Position numbers and translations under genes: made by a program. A DNA stretch of 64,000 nt from Candidatus Staskawiczbacteria bacterium (GTDB taxonomy: Bacteria > Patescibacteriota > Minisyncoccia > Minisyncoccales > Staskawiczbacteraceae). The notes below the pieces were generated by a model. It was not told the origin of the DNA. It saw only the letters and a list, made by a program, of their open reading frames with translations, and did no database searches. Numbering within the stretch: position 1 is the stretch's first letter; each line of letters begins with the position of its first letter. The stretch spans positions 138 through 64,137 of the forward strand of contig JACPYG010000004.1 of assembly GCA_016196125.1 (NCBI GenBank), read 5' to 3'. Positions 22,250-60,544 of this stretch are shown here, one piece after another.

Positions 22250-22957
22250 TTATTTTTTCTTATTGTTTAATCTATTTATTTCTTCTTGAATTTCTTTTAT
22301 AACTTCCTTATTACCAATTTCTCCATCTAAGCTAAAGATTATAAATACTTTTCCTTTATATTTTTTCTCAAAATCAATAAAATTTTTCTTCATCCTTTCT
22401 GATATAGAATAATTACCGAAATTTGCTTTAGCTGTAATTGGTTTAATTTGTATACCAAAAGCATACTTACCGACAAATCCTAAGTAATCTATATCGCCAG
22501 CATGGTCTAAATCGGTTTCACTTTCAACAAAATTTACGTCTGGAAAATATTTTGACAATTCATCATTTACTACTGATTTTTCACGAATAAAACCATCGTA
22601 AGTACGATTTATTGTTAAATTATAAATATAATCTATACAGTCCTGTAGTGATAATTCGCTAAATGCTGATTGCCATTCGGGAATCACAACTTCTGTAATT
22701 TTTTCATGCAAACGTTCGCCCAATTCTTTCAAAACGTCTGTGGTTATTTTTACTGGTTCTTTATTTTCAGTATAAGCCTTTTCGAAGTACCATTTTTCCC
22801 ATTCATCTATTATTTTAGGTTGACATTCTCTTATAAGCGCCATAACCGCGCCAACTTTATTTGGTCGCGATAATTGGTAAGTCTGGCAGGCATAATTTAA
22901 AACTTTTTCTTTTTTACCAAATTCCATAGAAAACTTTTTAGAAGTTTTATTTGACAT
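22250..22957 (-). CDS. putative type II restriction endonuclease (PD-(D/E)xK-like)
   Basis: Overlaps the methyltransferase by 11 nt. Candidate catalytic DHAGDIDYLG...FGIQIKP. Possibly MjaI-like, which I cannot verify. Confidence 0.5.
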   Translation of the reverse strand: MSNKTSKKFSMEFGKKEKVLNYACQTYQLSRPNKVGAVMALIRECQPKIIDEWEKWYFEKAYTENKEPVKITTDVLKELGERLHEKITEVVIPEWQSAFSELSLQDCIDYIYNLTINRTYDGFIREKSVVNDELSKYFPDVNFVESETDLDHAGDIDYLGFVGKYAFGIQIKPITAKANFGNYSISERMKKNFIDFEKKYKGKVFIIFSLDGEIGNKEVIKEIQEEINRLNNKKK

Positions 22958-24236
22958 AATTATATTTTAGTAAACTATTAAATTTATTCTTATACTTGTA
23001 TTCCATTTCTGTATTAGGCAAAGCAAATCCATCTTTAATCATATGTGCGTTAATAAAAGTTTTATTTTGTAAATAAAGATAACATAACAAATTATTATAT
23101 TTATCGTATTTTAAAGCATCAAATTTCATAAAAACCCTCTGTCCCTTAGTTTTATTAATTAAATACTCCACTGCTTCACCATTAATTTTTGGATTTTCTT
23201 TTATTCCGAGTAAACGAATTATTAAACCATTATTTAAGAGTATTTTTTCTGGGTCTAATATTTCTTTAACAGTATAAAATTCATCTTTTATATCATAGCT
23301 GTTTTTATCTATTTTTGATCCAAATTGTAATTTTTTGAGATCTATCTTTTTATCTAATTTGTGGGGGTCTTTAAATATGTAAGGTAATTGATTTATTCTT
23401 TCATCAAAGTTAATATTTTTTGGCGCGTCGACAAATTCTAATGAATCGTTCTTAGAATTAATAACACCTATTTTATTTTTTATAATTGTTAGGAATTCTT
23501 GGTTAATTTCGTATCCAACTGAGTTTCTGCTAAGATTTTTTGAAACCAAAGAAGTTGTTCCACTCCCCAAGAATGGATCCAATACTGTATCGCCAACAAA
23601 TGAAAACATTTTTATTAGTCTTCTTGGTAATTCTTCTGGAAATACTGCTATATGCCCATCCTGTCTCGCCCCTCCAAAATTCCAATGACCTTGAAAATAT
23701 TGATTCCACTCCTCTTTAGTTAGTTTAGATTCTTCTTTTATTATTCTATCAACTTTTGGTCCATCGCTTTGTTTTTTAAATATTAGAATAAATTCATAAT
23801 CTAATTTTATAATTCCATTTCTTGGATAAGGGAAACTACCCATTATTGTAGCTCCTCCGGTAGTATTCATAGTAGTAGTTTTTTGCCAAATGATTGAACC
23901 CATATAATCAAATCCTATTGTTTCGCAGAACTTAATTATCTCTGTTCTTATTGGAATAACCTTATAGCGACCATAATAAACAGCACGAGCAAATTGATCG
24001 CCAATATTTATGCAAAGACGACAACCATTTTCTAAAACTCGATGACATTCATTCCAAACTAAGTTTAAATAGTTAATATATTTTTCGTAACTATCATTAA
24101 AACCAATCTGATTATCTGAGCCATAATCTTTTAGTTGCCAATATGGAGGTGATGTAATAATAAGTTGAATAGAGTTATCTTTTAACTCTTTCATATCCCT
24201 TGAGTCACTTATTATAATTTTATGATTGGTTTTCAT
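22947..24236 (-). CDS. beta-class N4-C/N6-A DNA methyltransferase with C-terminal SNase-like domain
   Basis: Motif IV ITSPPYW lies near the N-terminus and motif I DPFLGSGTT lies later. The last 90 aa or so (GEAVEYLINKTKGQRVFMKFD...NNLLCYLYL...NAHMIKDGFALP) resemble a thermonuclease fold. Confidence 0.8.
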   Translation of the reverse strand: MKTNHKIIISDSRDMKELKDNSIQLIITSPPYWQLKDYGSDNQIGFNDSYEKYINYLNLVWNECHRVLENGCRLCINIGDQFARAVYYGRYKVIPIRTEIIKFCETIGFDYMGSIIWQKTTTMNTTGGATIMGSFPYPRNGIIKLDYEFILIFKKQSDGPKVDRIIKEESKLTKEEWNQYFQGHWNFGGARQDGHIAVFPEELPRRLIKMFSFVGDTVLDPFLGSGTTSLVSKNLSRNSVGYEINQEFLTIIKNKIGVINSKNDSLEFVDAPKNINFDERINQLPYIFKDPHKLDKKIDLKKLQFGSKIDKNSYDIKDEFYTVKEILDPEKILLNNGLIIRLLGIKENPKINGEAVEYLINKTKGQRVFMKFDALKYDKYNNLLCYLYLQNKTFINAHMIKDGFALPNTEMEYKYKNKFNSLLKYNYVK

Positions 24237-24353: not shown

Positions 24354-26477
24354 TTAAATATCCAAATTCTTCACGCTCTTTGCGTGCGTCTGGATGAACT
24401 TCTTTCTTGGACCTACTTCCTCGCCCATTAGAATATCAAATATTTTATCGGCTTCTCTGGCTTCCTCAACTTTCACCTGCAATAACAATCTGTTTTCCGG
24501 ATTCATTGTTGTTTCCCAAAGCTGTTCGGCATTCATTTCTCCCAAACCCTTATACCTTTGAATTGATATATTTTTATCTTTACCAATTTCTTTTACAAGT
24601 TTGTCTTTTTGCTCGTCATTGTAAGCATAACTTATGCTTTTTCCTGATTGAATTTTGTAAAGCGGCGGCTGGGCTATGTAAATATAACCCGCCTCAACTA
24701 TTGATTTAAAGTATCTGTAAAACAATGTCAAAAGCAAAGTTCTAATATGAGCTCCGTCAACATCGGCATCGGTCATGATTACTATGCGGTGATATCTTAA
24801 TTTTTCTATGTCAAAATCTTCGGCTACTGCGGTACCCAAGGCAATAATCAAAGATTTAATTTCTTTTGAAGCCAGCATTTTGTCTAATCTGGCTCTTTCC
24901 ACATTTAATATTTTACCCCTTAAAGGCAATATTGCCTGAAATCCCCTGTCTCTGGCTTGCTTGGCCGAACCTCCGGCCGAATCTCCCTCAACTATGTAAA
25001 GTTCTGAATCTTCCGGCTTTTTTGACAAGCAATCAGCCAATTTTCCCGGCAAAGCCAAACCCTCTAAAATTCCCTTTCTCAAAACTGTCTGGCGGGCCGC
25101 TTTGGCCGCCAATCTTGCTTTTGTGGCCAAAAGGCAGTTTTCAACAACAGCTCTGGCATCTTGGGGATATCTTTCTAAATAATCGGCCAATCCTTCCGAA
25201 ACTGCCGTTTCTACAGCGTTTTTAGCTTCTGGATTGCCTAATTTTGCTTTTGTTTGGCCTTCAAACTGCGGAGTTCTTATTTTTACAGAAACAACGGCCG
25301 TTAAGCCTTCTCTTACGTCGTCACCGGTAAAATTTTCATCTTTTTCTTTTAAAAATCCTTCCCGCCTTGCATAGTCATTTAAGCATCTTGTTAATGCAGT
25401 GCGAAAACCGGAAATATGAGTTCCGCCGTCAATGGTGTAAATGTTATTGGCAAAAGATTCTTCGGCGCATTCCATTTCTTGGGTATATTGGAAAGCGGCC
25501 TCTACATAAACATCATTTTTTGACACAGCAACCGAAAACACGTTTGGGTGGCGCGGCGTATTGCTTTGGACCAAGTATTTCACATAAGAAGAAACTCCTC
25601 CTTCAAAATAAAAAGTGTAGCTTGATTCTTTGCCTTTTATTCTTTCATCAGCCAAAGAAATTTTTACCCCTTTTGTTAAATATGCCTGCTGGCGCAAATG
25701 GTTCATAATTCTTTTTGCGTCGTATTTTATTTCTGGAAAAATTTGCGGGTCTGCGTCAAAGGCAACAGAAGTTCCTGTTTTTTTGCTGTCGCCTGCTTTT
25801 TTAACCGGCGACTTGGGTATTCCCCTGAAATATTCTTGAACATATTTTCCGCCGTCTCTTTGAACCTCGGCTTCCATAAAGGTAGACAAAGCGCAAACAA
25901 CCGAAACTCCAACGCCGTGCAATCCGCCCGAAACTTTATAGGCATCTCCGCCAAACTTGCCTCCTGCGTGCAGGGTTGTCATAACCGTTTCTAAAGCCGA
26001 CTTTTTTGTATCTGCGTGTTTTTCTACCGGAATGCCTCTGCCGTCGTCGGAAATTTTTACTCTGTTGTTTGGCAACAAAACAACCTCAATGCTTTTGGCA
26101 TATCCTGCCATTGCTTCGTCGAGTGAATTATCTACCACTTCCCAAATTAAGTGATGAAGCCCGTCTATGCCAGTTGAACCAATATACATTCCCGGCCTTT
26201 TTCTTACGGGTTCCAAACCCTTTAAAACATAAATGTCTTTAGCGGTGTATTCATCGTCTTTTTTGATTTTCTTTGGTTCCGGAGGCGCATATGCGACTGT
26301 TGATTCTTGCTTAACCTCGGCCTTTTCCGCCTTGGGTGGAATCCCGCCAGAGGCGGCGGTCTTTTCCCATGGCTTTGCCTTTGGGCTTTTATCCTTATCT
26401 TTTTTTATTTTCTTTCCTCGCCCTTCCGAAGCCTTGGCGAATGAGGGTTCTTCTGCGTCTTTTATATTTATTTTCAT
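24354..26477 (-). CDS. gyrB: DNA gyrase subunit B with a Lys/Pro/Ala-rich N-terminal extension of about 75 aa
   Basis: VLKGLEPVRKRPGMYIG, GGLHGVG, EGDSAGG, PLRGKILNV, 707 aa. Confidence 0.95.
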   Translation of the reverse strand: MKINIKDAEEPSFAKASEGRGKKIKKDKDKSPKAKPWEKTAASGGIPPKAEKAEVKQESTVAYAPPEPKKIKKDDEYTAKDIYVLKGLEPVRKRPGMYIGSTGIDGLHHLIWEVVDNSLDEAMAGYAKSIEVVLLPNNRVKISDDGRGIPVEKHADTKKSALETVMTTLHAGGKFGGDAYKVSGGLHGVGVSVVCALSTFMEAEVQRDGGKYVQEYFRGIPKSPVKKAGDSKKTGTSVAFDADPQIFPEIKYDAKRIMNHLRQQAYLTKGVKISLADERIKGKESSYTFYFEGGVSSYVKYLVQSNTPRHPNVFSVAVSKNDVYVEAAFQYTQEMECAEESFANNIYTIDGGTHISGFRTALTRCLNDYARREGFLKEKDENFTGDDVREGLTAVVSVKIRTPQFEGQTKAKLGNPEAKNAVETAVSEGLADYLERYPQDARAVVENCLLATKARLAAKAARQTVLRKGILEGLALPGKLADCLSKKPEDSELYIVEGDSAGGSAKQARDRGFQAILPLRGKILNVERARLDKMLASKEIKSLIIALGTAVAEDFDIEKLRYHRIVIMTDADVDGAHIRTLLLTLFYRYFKSIVEAGYIYIAQPPLYKIQSGKSISYAYNDEQKDKLVKEIGKDKNISIQRYKGLGEMNAEQLWETTMNPENRLLLQVKVEEAREADKIFDILMGEEVGPRKKFIQTHAKSVKNLDI

Positions 26478-26550: not shown

Positions 26551-27690
26551 TTATCTTATTATTGCGTCAAGCTCCTGTTTAGTCTTATCTATAATTTTGT
26601 CATGAATTTTGTTAACTTCTTGGTCTGTTAAAGTTTTTTCTAACGACCTGTAAACTATGTGAAAAGTGTAAGATTTTTTATCTTTTCCGAATTTTTCTTC
26701 ATTTTCATAGCTATCCATAAGCTTTACCTCTTCAATTAAATTCTCATCCAAGTCGCGCACCAGCTCGTAATAATTATTCAAATTTATATTTTTATCAATA
26801 ATAAATGAAATATCTCTTGAAATTTCCGGATATTTACTGACTTCTTTATATTTGTTATTTATATTCTTCAGTTGGTTGGTTATTCTTGCGTCATTTGACC
26901 AAAAAATTCTAATATCCGGAATTTCCATTTTGGCAATGGCTAATCTTTCCAAACCAAATCCATAAGCCCAACCGTTGTAATATTCCAAACCGAAATTTTT
27001 CAGCACGCTTTTTTTGGGCATTCCTCCACCCAAAAGTTCCAGCCATTTTCCATTAAATTCTATTTCCACTTCTAGTGAAGGGTCGGTATACGGAAAAATA
27101 TCCTCATTAAACCTGAATTTTACATTTGGGCCGAAGATGCTTTTTACAATAAGCGACAAGGCATTTTTTAAGTCGTCTAAAACAAGGATTTTTTGGCTGT
27201 CTGGCACAAGATATAAACCCCCCATTTGATGAAATACATTCATATGGTGCCTGTCTATTTCATCTTTACGGTACACTTTTCCGTAGCAGAAAACTCCGAG
27301 TGATGCATTTTTATTTATTCTATCTTTTATTTCTGGTTCATTTAGATAATAGTGCCACATGACGGTATCATGAGTTCTCAAAACATTGTTGCTATCTACA
27401 TAATACGTATCCGATTCACTACGGGCGGGATGGTCTTTTGCAAAATCAAAAAGATCAAAAAGAATGTTAGTGGGTATTATTTCTGGTATTTGGATTACGT
27501 CAAAGTCTTTGAATTCTTCAATATTTATTACCGCATCAATTAAAGATTTTAAAGGGCTGCCATTTGTGCGTGACAAATCTGGTAGAGCCATTAATCTCTT
27601 AATTCTTTCTGATTTAACATCTGTTCTTTTGTTTAATTCTTTAATTAAATCGCTCTCTTTTGCGTCATTTATTATAATATTTTTGCGCAT
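26551..27690 (-). CDS. pheS: phenylalanyl-tRNA synthetase, single-chain mitochondrial type (catalytic core plus FDX-ACB domain)
   Basis: Motif 2 YRKDEIDRHHMNVFHQMGG, motif 3 GWAYGFGLERLAI. The C-terminus SKYPEISRDISF...LIEEVKLMDSYENEEKFGKDKKSYTFHIVYRSLEKTLTDQEV parallels the C-terminal anticodon-binding domain of human FARS2. ATG at 27690. Confidence 0.8.
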   Translation of the reverse strand: MRKNIIINDAKESDLIKELNKRTDVKSERIKRLMALPDLSRTNGSPLKSLIDAVINIEEFKDFDVIQIPEIIPTNILFDLFDFAKDHPARSESDTYYVDSNNVLRTHDTVMWHYYLNEPEIKDRINKNASLGVFCYGKVYRKDEIDRHHMNVFHQMGGLYLVPDSQKILVLDDLKNALSLIVKSIFGPNVKFRFNEDIFPYTDPSLEVEIEFNGKWLELLGGGMPKKSVLKNFGLEYYNGWAYGFGLERLAIAKMEIPDIRIFWSNDARITNQLKNINNKYKEVSKYPEISRDISFIIDKNINLNNYYELVRDLDENLIEEVKLMDSYENEEKFGKDKKSYTFHIVYRSLEKTLTDQEVNKIHDKIIDKTKQELDAIIR

Positions 27691-27820: not shown

Positions 27821-28600
27821 TCAAATTAAAAACCAACCATTTTCTTTCGCCTTGGCAGCTAAAGCATTGCTCCTGTCAACAACTACTTTTATTTTACAGT
27901 ATTCCAGCATGGCTAAATCATATATGCTATCTCCCGCTCCAAATAGCGGTTTTTTTTCGGGGTCTATAAATTTTTTAATACATTCCACTTTTCCTTCAAA
28001 CATTGATAATGGTTTTTCTAACTCGGCAGTAAATTTACCATCAATCATAGTATTTCGGACGCCTATAACTTTAGTCTTAATATCAAAACGTTTTATGACT
28101 TCCTTTACTAAAACCTCAATGGAAGCGGTAATAATCCAAACTTCAATGCCACTGTTTTTAAGCAGGTCAATAAGCCCAATAATATGCTCTCTTGGTTTAA
28201 TTCCTTTGGCAACTTCTCTGCCAAATAAATTGTATTTAGTTATGTCTTTGCCTTCAAAATCTATAACTTTACTGACGAGTAAGCTAATTTCATTGACGTT
28301 AAATCCGCTTAAAATTTTTGATATAAATTGGTAGGCTTCTTTAACTTGATTTTCTTTTAATAAATGATAATAGTTATCAAAAACGGCTTTGGAATACATT
28401 TCACTCCCCGCATCTTCAAAATTAACTTCCAGAAGATTTTTATCTCTGAATAAATTATTGCTTGCCATATAAGCTAAAGTTGCTTCAGTGATATCATTTG
28501 CGATGCAAGTATTATCAAAATCAAACACCGCAAAAGCAGGCAATGTTGATTGCTTAATGATGGTAATGATTTTTTGATAGAATAAATTTACATCTGTCAT
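27821..28600 (-). CDS. HAD-superfamily hydrolase (subfamily IB-like)
   Basis: FAVFDFDNTCI (DxDxT) and C-terminal GAGDSIYD. Confidence 0.7.
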   Translation of the reverse strand: MTDVNLFYQKIITIIKQSTLPAFAVFDFDNTCIANDITEATLAYMASNNLFRDKNLLEVNFEDAGSEMYSKAVFDNYYHLLKENQVKEAYQFISKILSGFNVNEISLLVSKVIDFEGKDITKYNLFGREVAKGIKPREHIIGLIDLLKNSGIEVWIITASIEVLVKEVIKRFDIKTKVIGVRNTMIDGKFTAELEKPLSMFEGKVECIKKFIDPEKKPLFGAGDSIYDLAMLEYCKIKVVVDRSNALAAKAKENGWFLI

Positions 28601-40931: not shown

Positions 40932-40958
40932 TATAAAAAAACAAGTTTCTTTACAAAT

Positions 40959-41031
40959 GCGGACGTAGCTCAATTGGCAGAGCGTTGGTCTCCAAAACCA
41001 ATGGTTGTGGGTTCGAGTCCCTCCGTCCGTG
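40959..41031 (+). tRNA. trnW: tRNA-Trp (anticodon CCA), discriminator G73, CCA not encoded
   Basis: Hand fold: acceptor GCGGACG/CGTCCGT, D arm gctc-aattggca-gagc, anticodon arm ttggt-ctCCAaa-accaa, variable loop tggtt, T arm gtggg-ttcgagt-ccctc (one U-U mismatch). Confidence 0.85.
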
Positions 41032-41052
41032 TTCCGCTGGCTTTTCTGGCAC

Positions 41053-43090: not shown

Positions 43091-44074
43091 TTATTTTTTA
43101 AGACCTATCGCACTGCGCATATCTGCAAGGACAGACGAAGCTATTAATCGAACCTTATTGGCACCCTGCGCAAGAATTTCACGAACAGTATTATTGCTCA
43201 GTAATTCGTATCTTTGCTGAATAGGTTTAAGAAGAGTAGTAATATCTTCAGCGAGCCGCTGTTTCATTTCACCAAAAAACTTGCCTTCGCAATTAACGTA
43301 GCGACGCAGATATTCGGTGTGAATATCAGGCGGACTACATAATTCCATAAGAGTATATAGCGCCTTTGTACCTGACTGCATTTCGCCGCCGGGTTCTGAT
43401 TGAGTGGGAATGCCACGAACCTTCTTTATAACAGAAGATATGTCTTCGAGCAAAGCAATAGTATTGCCATCGCTTTTACCCATTTTGTCTGCTCCATCGA
43501 TTCCTGGTACCCGTAAAGGGTTATTAACATTTAATTCTGGAATAATAAAAATATCCTTTTCAAACATGTGATTAAATGCTCTCGCAAAGTCGCGAGTCAT
43601 TTCAACGTGCTGGGTTTGATCCTGACCAACAGGCACTCGTTGTGCACGAACACAGAGAATATCCGAAGCCATCAGAACTGGATAACCTAGTAAGCCGTAG
43701 CTGACTTCGCCCTCTGGGACACCCTTATTATTAACGCGATCCTTGAATGTTGTACAAGTTTGAAGCCGACCAAGTTTAACGACATTGCCCAAAAGAAGAG
43801 CGATTTCACTCACTTCCGGCACATCACTTTGGCAGTATAGCGTTGATCACATAGAATCGATTCCGCAGGCCAAGTAATTCTTGGCCACTTCGACTGACAT
43901 TTCTTCAATATTTGTGGGACCTGTAACTTCGGTCAGAGCATGAATGTCTGCCACGAAGAAAAAGCATTCTTCTCCAGCAGTCTGAAGATCCAAGAACTGC
44001 TTAATAGCGCCAAAATAATTACCAAGGTGCAAATTACCAGTAGGTCTCATACCAGATAAAACTCGACTGCTCAT
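43091..44074 (-). pseudogene. trpS: tryptophanyl-tRNA synthetase interrupted by a single in-frame TGA (43847-43849)
   Basis: N-terminal ORF has the HIGH motif (TGNLHLGNY). C-terminal ORF has KMSKS (KMGKSDGN). Both are in the same frame, and the junction reads ACGIDSM-TGA-STLYCQSDVPEV, matching conserved ACGID...ST.F.QS.VPE. About 43% GC. Confidence 0.75.
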
Positions 44075-59454: not shown

Positions 59455-59890
59455 TTGTCAAATGAATGTAATGGTTCAGCACCTTAGCAACACCCTGCGG
59501 TATAATGGTATGTATATGTCATACACAAACAATCCAAATATGCCTAAGGTAAGAATGCAAGCAGTCATGCTGGTAAAACAGGGCTGGTCGATACGGAAGA
59601 CTGCCAGGTATGTCGGGGTTTATCCGAGTACTGTGCTACGATGGGTAGAAAAAAGAATTTTAGGAAACAATTTTTCAATCCCGACACTCTCATCCGCTCC
59701 GCATAGTCACCCTAATGCGATGCCCGAAGAAATGGTCAGAAAAATTATTGAGTACCGCCAAAGGTACCACCGATGCGCGCAGGTTCTGCATTACCTTTTA
59801 AATCGTGATGGGATTGTTGTCAGTTTGTCGTCGGTAAAAAGAACATTGAGAAGAAATAATCTTGTTAATCACTCAAAATGGAAAAAGCGT
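59455..59890 (+). mobile_element. IS481/IS3-like transposase fragment (N-terminal HTH region only, no DDE domain)
   Basis: WSIRKTARYVGVYPSTVLRWVEK, ...PHSHPNAMPEEMVRKIIEYRQRY.RCAQVLHYLLNRDGIVVSLSSVKRTLRRNNL. Beyond about 59890 the ORF is merely antisense to tyrS. Confidence 0.6.
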
Positions 59891-60544
59891 AAGGATCACT
59901 TGCGGAGTCTGCCCGAACCGCTCTTGGTAGAAACGGCCCATCATCTCATTGAAAAGTTGATCGGAACCGATTATCGTGACGTCGGACTGTAGCGCGAACG
60001 AGTCATATCCCTGCAAAAGTGGGTAGACCATTTCGTGCATGTAGATGTCGTCCTCATCAGTGAGGCGCTTCTGGAACATGTCCCGAGAGATCAGCCGAGC
60101 ATGAGTGACCATAGAAAGAAGCTTCAGGAACTCTCCTATCGCCATATTACCAAACCACTCCGAGTTTCGCCTGACCTCAAGCAATTCAGGATTATCGAAG
60201 CGAAGGACCATCTTGGCCTGCTCGATGAATTCCAGAGTGTTGCGCTCGATTTCTTCCTGCAGGATCACTGGCCTGGTCCTACTCTTGCCGGTAGGATCAC
60301 CAATTTGCGTGGTGAAATCGCCGATTAAGAAGATGACCTTGTGACCGTGGTCTTGGAGTAGTCGCATCATCCACAGATTGGCCGCGTGGCCAATGTGGAG
60401 GTACGGGGCCGTGACATCGACGCCGTATTTGATCCGCAGACGCTTGCCGCTACAGAGGAGATTATTCCATTCACTCATAGAAAAGACCTCTGCAGTTGTG
60501 CGACTGAACTTCATATGCAGATCTTCAATCTGCTGTGCGTTCAT
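59873..60544 (-). pseudogene. tyrS: tyrosyl-tRNA synthetase, truncated after the catalytic core
   Basis: HIGH (PYLHIGHAA), GDFTTQIGDPTGKS, YPLLQGYDS, IGSDQ. No KMSKS motif or C-terminal domain. About 50% GC. Confidence 0.7.

Follow-up and report, generated by a model that had tools for sequence, protein, structure and literature searches.

How does a groundwater bacterium charge its tRNA-Phe when its genome yields no gene for the beta subunit (PheT) of phenylalanyl-tRNA synthetase (PheRS)? The question is raised by a minus-strand open reading frame (ORF) in a 64,000-nucleotide stretch of Candidatus Staskawiczbacteria bacterium (GenBank assembly GCA_016196125.1, contig JACPYG010000004.1, positions 138 to 64,137; the whole analysed stretch is referred to below as the window), whose product, P0001, we call the window PheRS. 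PMC3275996 (excerpt) describes bacterial PheRS as an (alpha-beta)2 enzyme and mitochondrial PheRS as a chimera, active as a monomer, that joins the catalytic module of alpha to domain B8 of beta; according to it, no other monomeric class II synthetase is known, and the mitochondrial enzyme branched off late from a bacterial ancestor. We consider it very probable that the gene studied here encodes the organism's only PheRS, a single chain in which a PheS-type module is fused to a PheT-type ferredoxin-fold anticodon-binding (FDX-ACB) domain. The single-chain architecture itself is already known from mitochondria and giant viruses. In the full-text literature (i.e., outside subscription journals and supplements) we found no paper on a bacterial lineage with a single-chain PheRS as its only PheRS, none linking PheRS or pheT with Patescibacteria, the Candidate Phyla Radiation (CPR) or Parcubacteria, and none on SrmL, a 'PheS-related mystery ligase' (NF051887) to which we return below.

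The ORF runs from an ATG at 27690 to a TAA stop at 26551–26553, and a longer, TTG-started version of the frame extends to 27747; homologues align to the 379-residue form from residues 1–4 up to residue 379, and because the alignments of these relatives start there we prefer the shorter form. The ORF and the strings quoted for it in a first-pass annotation, which had been made from the sequence without database searches, are all present in the translation (YRKDEIDRHHMNVFHQMGG and GFGLERLAI, at the residues listed in Table 1, SKYPEISRDISF, and the C-terminal stretch). A Pfam search matched the core to the class II catalytic domain tRNA-synt_2d (PF01409; E-value 4.7e-53, 180.6 bits) and the C-terminus to FDX-ACB (PF03147; 4.9e-27, 94.6 bits against a cut-off of 31.1), scores that are far beyond chance, and the two domains are combined in one chain; FDX-ACB, on whose detection the first-pass annotation hung, was found. 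The core also matched the pheS profile (TIGR00468, 2.5e-47) from model position 45 of 324, and the C-terminus matched positions 676–798 of the 798 in pheT_bact (TIGR00472, 1.7e-25). Whereas canonical PheST is encoded by two genes, here one gene of 379 residues has a core homologous to PheS and a C-terminus homologous to the end of PheT. Canonical PheS has a longer N-terminal region where the window PheRS carries a short helical segment (residues 1–43), and, unlike PheT, the window PheRS has no B1–B7 domains and hence no B3/B4 editing site. In its motif 2 region R141, D146, H149 and Q155 are invariant across a 62-row alignment.

An AlphaFold2 (AF2) model built on this 62-row alignment (pLDDT 95.5, pTM 0.90) found its best matches among solved structures in the closed form of human mitochondrial PheRS (5mgv, 3cmq and 5mgu, TMq 0.80–0.81; rmsd 2.6–2.8 over 386–388 columns, covering the whole length), compared with 0.61 for the tRNA-bound open mitochondrial enzyme and 0.52–0.55 for bacterial alpha chains. 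The human enzyme is FARS2 (PDB 3CMQ closed, 3TUP with tRNA; family model TIGR00469, pheS_mito; 'PheRS-M' in AARS Online). A sequence search of solved structures also ranked it first (~1e-52, with bacterial alpha chains at ~1e-33), and solved beta chains matched the window PheRS in the C-terminal domain only. The predicted fold and domain arrangement agree with those of solved mitochondrial PheRS, so that the proposed single-chain architecture is borne out by Pfam, by comparison with solved structures and by the predicted fold. Common to the window PheRS and FARS2 are a PheS-type core and an FDX-ACB domain in one chain, with a closed arrangement predicted for the former; FARS2 has neither a beta subunit nor an editing domain, and none was found for the window PheRS. 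The first-pass annotation had the C-terminal domain paralleling that of FARS2 nearly residue for residue. The parallel is real (including SKYP..DISF and YRI.YR..ERTL), and residues 202–404 of the human enzyme align with residues 169–369 of the window PheRS, but the wording was too strong for proteins sharing 30% identity over 386 aligned columns.

The searches of the genome returned no second candidate. The assembly (646,940 bp in 17 contigs, the window lying on contig 17; 94.96% complete, 0% contamination) gave no match to the PheT B3_4 domain, in a search that was positive in 14 of 14 control genomes, nothing on the pheT_bact profile beyond the C-terminus of the window PheRS gene, and no FDX-ACB domain other than that of the window PheRS; these absences, in a 95%-complete genome, bear on whether the enzyme works without a beta subunit. 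No pheT is adjacent to the gene, as had been remarked at first pass, the neighbours being a HAD hydrolase gene and gyrB, and the genome-wide search for pheT that had been called for found no canonical pheS/pheT pair. The one other tRNA-synt_2d match (22 bits) belongs to a class IIb Asp/Lys/Asn-type synthetase and was rejected as a PheRS. A tRNA-Phe(GAA) gene is present among the 34 tRNAs, and other synthetases are represented by five tRNA-synt_2b and four tRNA-synt_1b matches. Co-variation of the tRNA with the type of enzyme was considered and dropped: in a comparison of 18 tRNA-Phe genes (from 11 genomes of family f1, two of which, G002 and G005, have no detected PheRS gene, from G015 and from six canonical genomes) we found no differences between single-chain and PheST genomes, all 18 sharing G1-C72, A73, the GAA anticodon and the same D-loop, and the tRNA-Phe of the organism is of the same type as that of canonical PheST genomes.

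Replacement of PheST by a single-chain enzyme predicts that the two should complement each other across many families, and this is what we observed. Among 40 relatives from the order (24 of the same family and 16 from its other families) the single-chain gene occurs in 23, namely in 21 of the 24 and in two of the 16 (G029 and G035). B3_4 was found in two of the 23 holders and in 14 of the 17 non-holders: in the other families its carriers are precisely the 14 of 16 genomes without the single-chain gene, and the only same-family genomes with it are G015 and G018. The three same-family genomes without any single-chain match are 79–92% complete. In the four canonical loci of sister families that were read, B3_4 lies beside pheS, with pheS of 338–348 residues (259 in one) followed by a pheT of 671–702 residues. 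A sample of 300 genomes from the phylum, including the unpublished genome G192 of canonical type, gave the single-chain gene in 19 (17 full-length, two clipped by contig ends), spanning at least nine families, one of them with 10 holders among 10 genomes; B3_4 was absent from 18 of the 19, weak in one (G331, 1e-8) and present in 272 of the 281 non-holders. Even congeners differ, G294 being canonical and G322 single-chain. The relatives in these samples are not independent; the complementarity nonetheless recurs across many families, and a genome hardly ever carries both the single-chain gene and pheT. A side observation concerns family f35 (e.g., G047, G075, G099, G123 and G205), whose weak PheS-like matches (1e-11 to 1e-22) and B3_4 matches (1e-8 to 1e-21) suggest a divergent PheRS of another type.

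In G018 the B3_4 match (G018:C6:167242-167619) falls in a 252-residue frame that carries B3_4 only and accompanies the single-chain PheRS system of that genome. This match and the weak one in G331 could represent a free-standing editing domain, and they lend something to the idea that the protein is a housekeeping PheRS but no lone monomer, acting as a homodimer or with a tRNA-binding or editing partner. Class II synthetase cores usually dimerise, which points the same way. We regard such an arrangement as unlikely, given that PMC3275996 (excerpt) has the nearest relative by structure active in monomeric form and that the organism's own genome has no match to B3_4 or to D-Tyr-tRNA deacylase. 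A two-copy complex prediction of the window PheRS (score 0.00, mark 0.42) weighs neither for nor against a homodimer.

Family models place the protein between known groups. The window PheRS scores 223.7 bits on pheS_mito (cut-off 258.35), 226.4 on SrmL (cut-off 300) and 161.7 on pheS (cut-off 237.45), and a representative of the same clade, P0121, which is 53% identical to it, reaches 264.3 on pheS_mito. It is no canonical bacterial PheS, with a score below the cut-off, less than a full-length PheS and no pheT found. The label 'mitochondrial-type' given at first pass holds for architecture and fold and fails for family membership: the score is below the pheS_mito cut-off, and the insertion of ~36 residues that follows motif 2 in human mitochondrial PheRS is absent. 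In addition, the window PheRS has Y201 and G157 in place of F and E in FARS2, and it is bacterial and a candidate for the sole cellular PheRS, whereas FARS2 is organellar. As it falls below the pheS_mito, SrmL and pheS cut-offs and, as shown below, outside the organellar clade, we do not assign it to the FARS2 family.

The SrmL score, although short of the cut-off, brings in a further alternative, namely that we are dealing with a PheS-related accessory ligase of the SrmL kind, with a substrate other than Phe or a non-translational role, and that the true PheRS genes are missing from a genome that is 95% complete and not closed. SrmL is bacterial, has PF01409 and PF03147 in a chain of similar length, groups with the window PheRS in one bacterial single-chain clade and shares Y201 with it. 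We nevertheless judge this very unlikely, first on the evidence of an alignment of 140 sequences of the Patescibacteria clade with 27 SrmL, 14 giant-virus, 37 mitochondrial and 21 PheS sequences. All 20 of the positions at which PheS, mitochondrial and giant-virus PheRS show a single residue are retained by 134–140 of the 140 clade members (H87, R90, D94, R141, D146, H149, F153, H154, Q155, F199, P200, T202, S205, E218, G221, G223, A242, G244, G246 and R249), with F199, P200, T202 and S205 in 140 of 140; A242, G244, G246 and R249 are conserved in all compared groups. Some of these positions would line the Phe pocket, as in bacterial PheRS structures. SrmL is altered at eight PheRS positions that the Patescibacteria clade keeps, i.e., H87, D94 (to Y), F153, F199 (H), S205 (G), G221 (E), W241 (L) and F243 (L), changes that fit the name 'mystery ligase'; the window PheRS has D94, F199, S205, G221 and W241 where SrmL has its specific Y94, H199, G205, E221 and L241. 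The T275A/A322G counter-selection allele of a Schaalia pheS is reported to relax specificity (PMC13622651, excerpt), and these two residues would correspond to T202 and A242 of the window PheRS.

The distribution of SrmL also argues against such a role. True SrmL proteins (P0230 and P0235) score 415–420 bits on their model, and the homologues of these two are named from ordinary bacteria (Dyella, Bacteroidota, Alphaproteobacteria and metagenome-assembled genomes (MAGs) of Actinomycetota), from phyla where canonical PheRS would be expected as the rule, whereas the window PheRS stands alone in its genome. In addition, pheT is missing from 21 of the 23 holders among the relatives and from 18 of the 19 holders in the phylum, many of them 97–100% complete, and with pheT missing across so many near-complete holders chance assembly gaps are no explanation.

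The phylogeny separates the window PheRS from the organellar enzymes while keeping the two as relatives. A search of 1.84 billion representatives returned 218 proteins at E-values of 1e-30 or less, which included a mitochondrial group of long forms with the insertion after motif 2 (384–446 bits on pheS_mito; one of these and its homologues are named as fungal mitochondrial PheRS) and a giant-virus group of short forms (~340–370 residues, 260–308 bits, above the cut-off). A scan of IMG/VR with an alignment of the short forms, the first sequence of which was P0137, gave 43 full-length matches that are 37–50% identical to P0137 and lie on contigs of as much as 1.47 Mb, several of which are labelled GVMAG; this agrees with PMC11304981, whose available excerpt groups nucleocytovirus PheRS with organellar PheRS and does not mention Patescibacteria. 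A contig scan that took aligned short pheS_mito-like proteins as its query found only canonical PheS among the matches listed (best 6e-40) and is uninformative on other prokaryotes. Trees were built from 74 rows under LG+G4 (SH-aLRT support; the window PheRS, 15 of the 23 Patescibacteria single-chain genes fetched and 10 of 14 viral sequences being included) and from 44 of the same rows under LG+C20 PMSF (SH-aLRT in one tree, ultrafast bootstrap/SH-aLRT in the other). In this order of trees, the split between PheS and all single-chain forms received 100, 100 and 100/100, that uniting mitochondrial and giant-virus forms 99, 99 and 100/99, and that uniting the bacterial single-chain forms (Patescibacteria, SrmL and unlabelled representatives) 95, 82 and 90/95; a first FastTree was consistent with all three. 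The window PheRS falls in the bacterial sister clade, outside the organellar one. It has in common with the PheRS of giant viruses (Nucleocytoviricota) a compact chain of ~340–400 residues, the same two domains, the lack of the insertion and the PheRS pocket positions; the viral enzymes, however, pass the pheS_mito cut-off and join organellar PheRS. Attachment of the single-chain clade within bacterial PheS has supports of 57–65 in the bootstrap tree, whose sampling took in neither alphaproteobacterial PheS nor archaeal sequences as outgroup. On these trees the most natural reading is of a single family of fused forms with two old branches, and as neither branch nests in the other the trees give no direction of transfer.

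With human mitochondrial PheRS as the best solved relative, and full-length relatives on giant-virus contigs, one could suppose that the gene is mis-binned eukaryotic DNA (a mitochondrial PheRS) or giant-virus DNA, or was very recently transferred from such a source. We find this scarcely credible. The gene lies mid-contig among bacterial genes (gyrB, a HAD hydrolase gene and a DNA methylase gene), G+C is similar (0.29–0.38) over 22–30 kb of the window, gyrB follows the PheRS gene in seven of nine relatives' loci, the human insertion after motif 2 is missing, and the mitochondrial and giant-virus clade excludes all bacterial forms in every tree. The gene lies in the bacterial clade, outside mitochondrial and giant-virus PheRS, and its linkage to gyrB is conserved; for these reasons we do not regard it as a eukaryotic or viral contaminant, and the phylogeny with FARS2 and bacterial PheS suggested by the first-pass annotation likewise shows no recent eukaryote-like one.

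Several observations weigh against a sole, single-chain PheRS. The protein is under every curated NCBIfam cut-off (pheS_mito, SrmL and pheS), and the trees place SrmL, a ligase whose substrate is not known, among its closest bacterial relatives. All 21 PheS compared have F at position 201, where 134 of 140 clade members and 27 of 27 SrmL have Y; at position 157, 124 of the 140 members have G and the other groups E or D. Close homologues, whose source names point to Candidatus Staskawiczbacteria and Parcubacteria (Patescibacteria, Minisyncoccota), are named 'hypothetical protein' in NCBI records, although the JGI name is 'phenylalanyl-tRNA synthetase alpha chain' and automatic annotations already guess 'phenylalanine--tRNA ligase' for such proteins. 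The genome is a draft of 17 contigs, so that a pheST pair in assembly gaps is conceivable. In the phylum sample nine of the 281 non-holders are also without B3_4 (77–99% complete, four of them at 91–99%), and the absence calls are imperfect on this account. Finally, G015, which has 4% contamination, holds a full pheS-pheT pair together with the single-chain gene; the two loci are C11:34506-37215 and C7:57767-58906, respectively, and the PheS of G015 clusters with those of other Parcubacteria.

A sole, single-chain PheRS remains our preferred reading, and by analogy with human mitochondrial PheRS (PMC3275996, excerpt) we infer catalytic activity, a monomeric state, a hinge motion and the absence of proofreading. 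The core would activate Phe with ATP, and FDX-ACB would recognise GAA, the anticodon of a tRNA-Phe of ordinary bacterial type; on binding of the tRNA the two modules would swing from the closed arrangement, as in the model, to an open one, and Phe would be transferred to A76. With no B3/B4 editing domain, discrimination against Tyr would be left entirely to the synthetic site. An enzyme of ~380 residues would, in several lineages of Patescibacteria, have replaced the pheS-pheT pair, which totals ~1,030–1,050 residues in sister families.

The gene itself has a mosaic structure. In the congener G003 gyrB is 93% identical to that of the window and PheRS 60% identical. Sliding-window comparisons (loci L009 of G003 and L177 of G107) put residues 1–40 and 241–360 close to 'type A', the gene type native to the family (mean identity 66–84%), and residues ~41–240 close to 'type B', the type of other families (best 70–90%). 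Partition trees agreed: the core, which is 78% identical to that of G107 from another family, groups with it (support 93, within a clade with 99), and the N-terminus with FDX-ACB groups with G003 (99). The low PheRS identity to G003 despite the 93% for gyrB is explained by a 'type B' core between 'type A' ends. The PheRS genes of the window and of G001 are recombinants: both ends are native, the catalytic module between them is foreign, and the gene keeps its native locus, which suggests that the module was swapped there by recombination.

Table 1. Features of the single-chain PheRS gene and its immediate neighbours (positions are those of the window)
Feature	Positions	Strand	Basis
Single-chain PheRS coding sequence, protein P0001 (379 residues plus TAA stop)	26551–27690	-	ORF translation
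N-terminal helical segment, residues 1–43	27562–27690	-	AF2 model, predicted helices 10–21 and 25–35
Class II catalytic core tRNA-synt_2d, residues 44–273	26872–27561	-	Pfam PF01409
Motif 2 region YRKDEIDRHHMNVFHQMGG, residues 140–158	27217–27273	-	Read in translation
FPYTDPS, residues 199–205, counterpart of FPFT(E)PS, with Y201 for F	27076–27096	-	
Motif 3 GFGLERLAI, residues 244–252, after W241-A242-Y243	26935–26961	-	
FDX-ACB domain, residues 285–379	26554–26838	-	Pfam PF03147
Putative imported 'type B' catalytic module, residues ~46–240	26971–27555, approximate	-	Sliding-window identities, partition trees
gyrB, directly downstream of PheRS	24354–26477	-	Pfam DNA_gyraseB, Toprim, HATPase_c
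HAD-family hydrolase gene, upstream of PheRS	27821–28600	-	Pfam HAD, 7.5e-15

Beyond the genes in Table 1, a DNA methylase gene (N6_N4_Mtase, 22947–24236, minus strand) whose product has a C-terminal staphylococcal-nuclease-like domain lies downstream of gyrB. Promoter-like sites around the PheRS gene (10, compared with 6.2 ± 2.5 in shuffles) are uninformative, and a scan around the gene found no terminator on its strand. The matching public sequencing runs were four DNA runs from groundwater, all of one study, and no RNA run. G+C is 0.47 in positions 1–2000 of the window and 0.28–0.42 elsewhere in it. Two further synthetase-like genes lie in the window. A trpS-like gene (43091–44074, minus strand) is an additional copy, intact tRNA-synt_1b genes being found on contigs 10 and 12, and is broken by one in-frame TGA near 43847–43849; the 243-residue piece downstream of the TGA scores 174 bits on TIGR00233 (cut-off 176.75), and the interrupted gene may be a pseudogene, or the TGA a sequencing error or recoding site. 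About 2 kb from this gene is a second one for tRNA-Trp(CCA) (40958–41032, plus strand), the other tRNA-Trp being on contig 14. A 223-residue ORF (59873–60544, minus strand) matches the N-terminal half of TyrRS only (positions 6–220 of 406 in TIGR00234, 177.8 bits) and is a truncated extra tyrS copy or a fragment.

Whole bacterial lineages thus seem to depend on a single-chain PheRS that lacks an editing domain and whose sister group is formed by the mitochondrial and giant-virus enzymes. This would explain the pheT gaps in some Patescibacteria genomes, the replacement being named 'hypothetical protein' at NCBI, and the mosaic gene suggests a modularity in which the catalytic module may be exchanged among lineages while the tRNA-reading domain stays native. 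We speculate, with rather less than even confidence, that the fusion took place once, in a bacterium, with the Patescibacteria and SrmL forms and the mitochondrial and giant-virus forms as its two surviving branches, so that FARS2 would derive from a fused bacterial gene and the Patescibacteria would carry a proofreading-free version that swaps modules; if so, the one-chain PheRS design would not be a eukaryotic invention for mitochondria. The origin of FARS2 becomes testable with real bacterial relatives, and these lineages may offer a natural minimal bacterial PheRS for the study of fidelity without proofreading.

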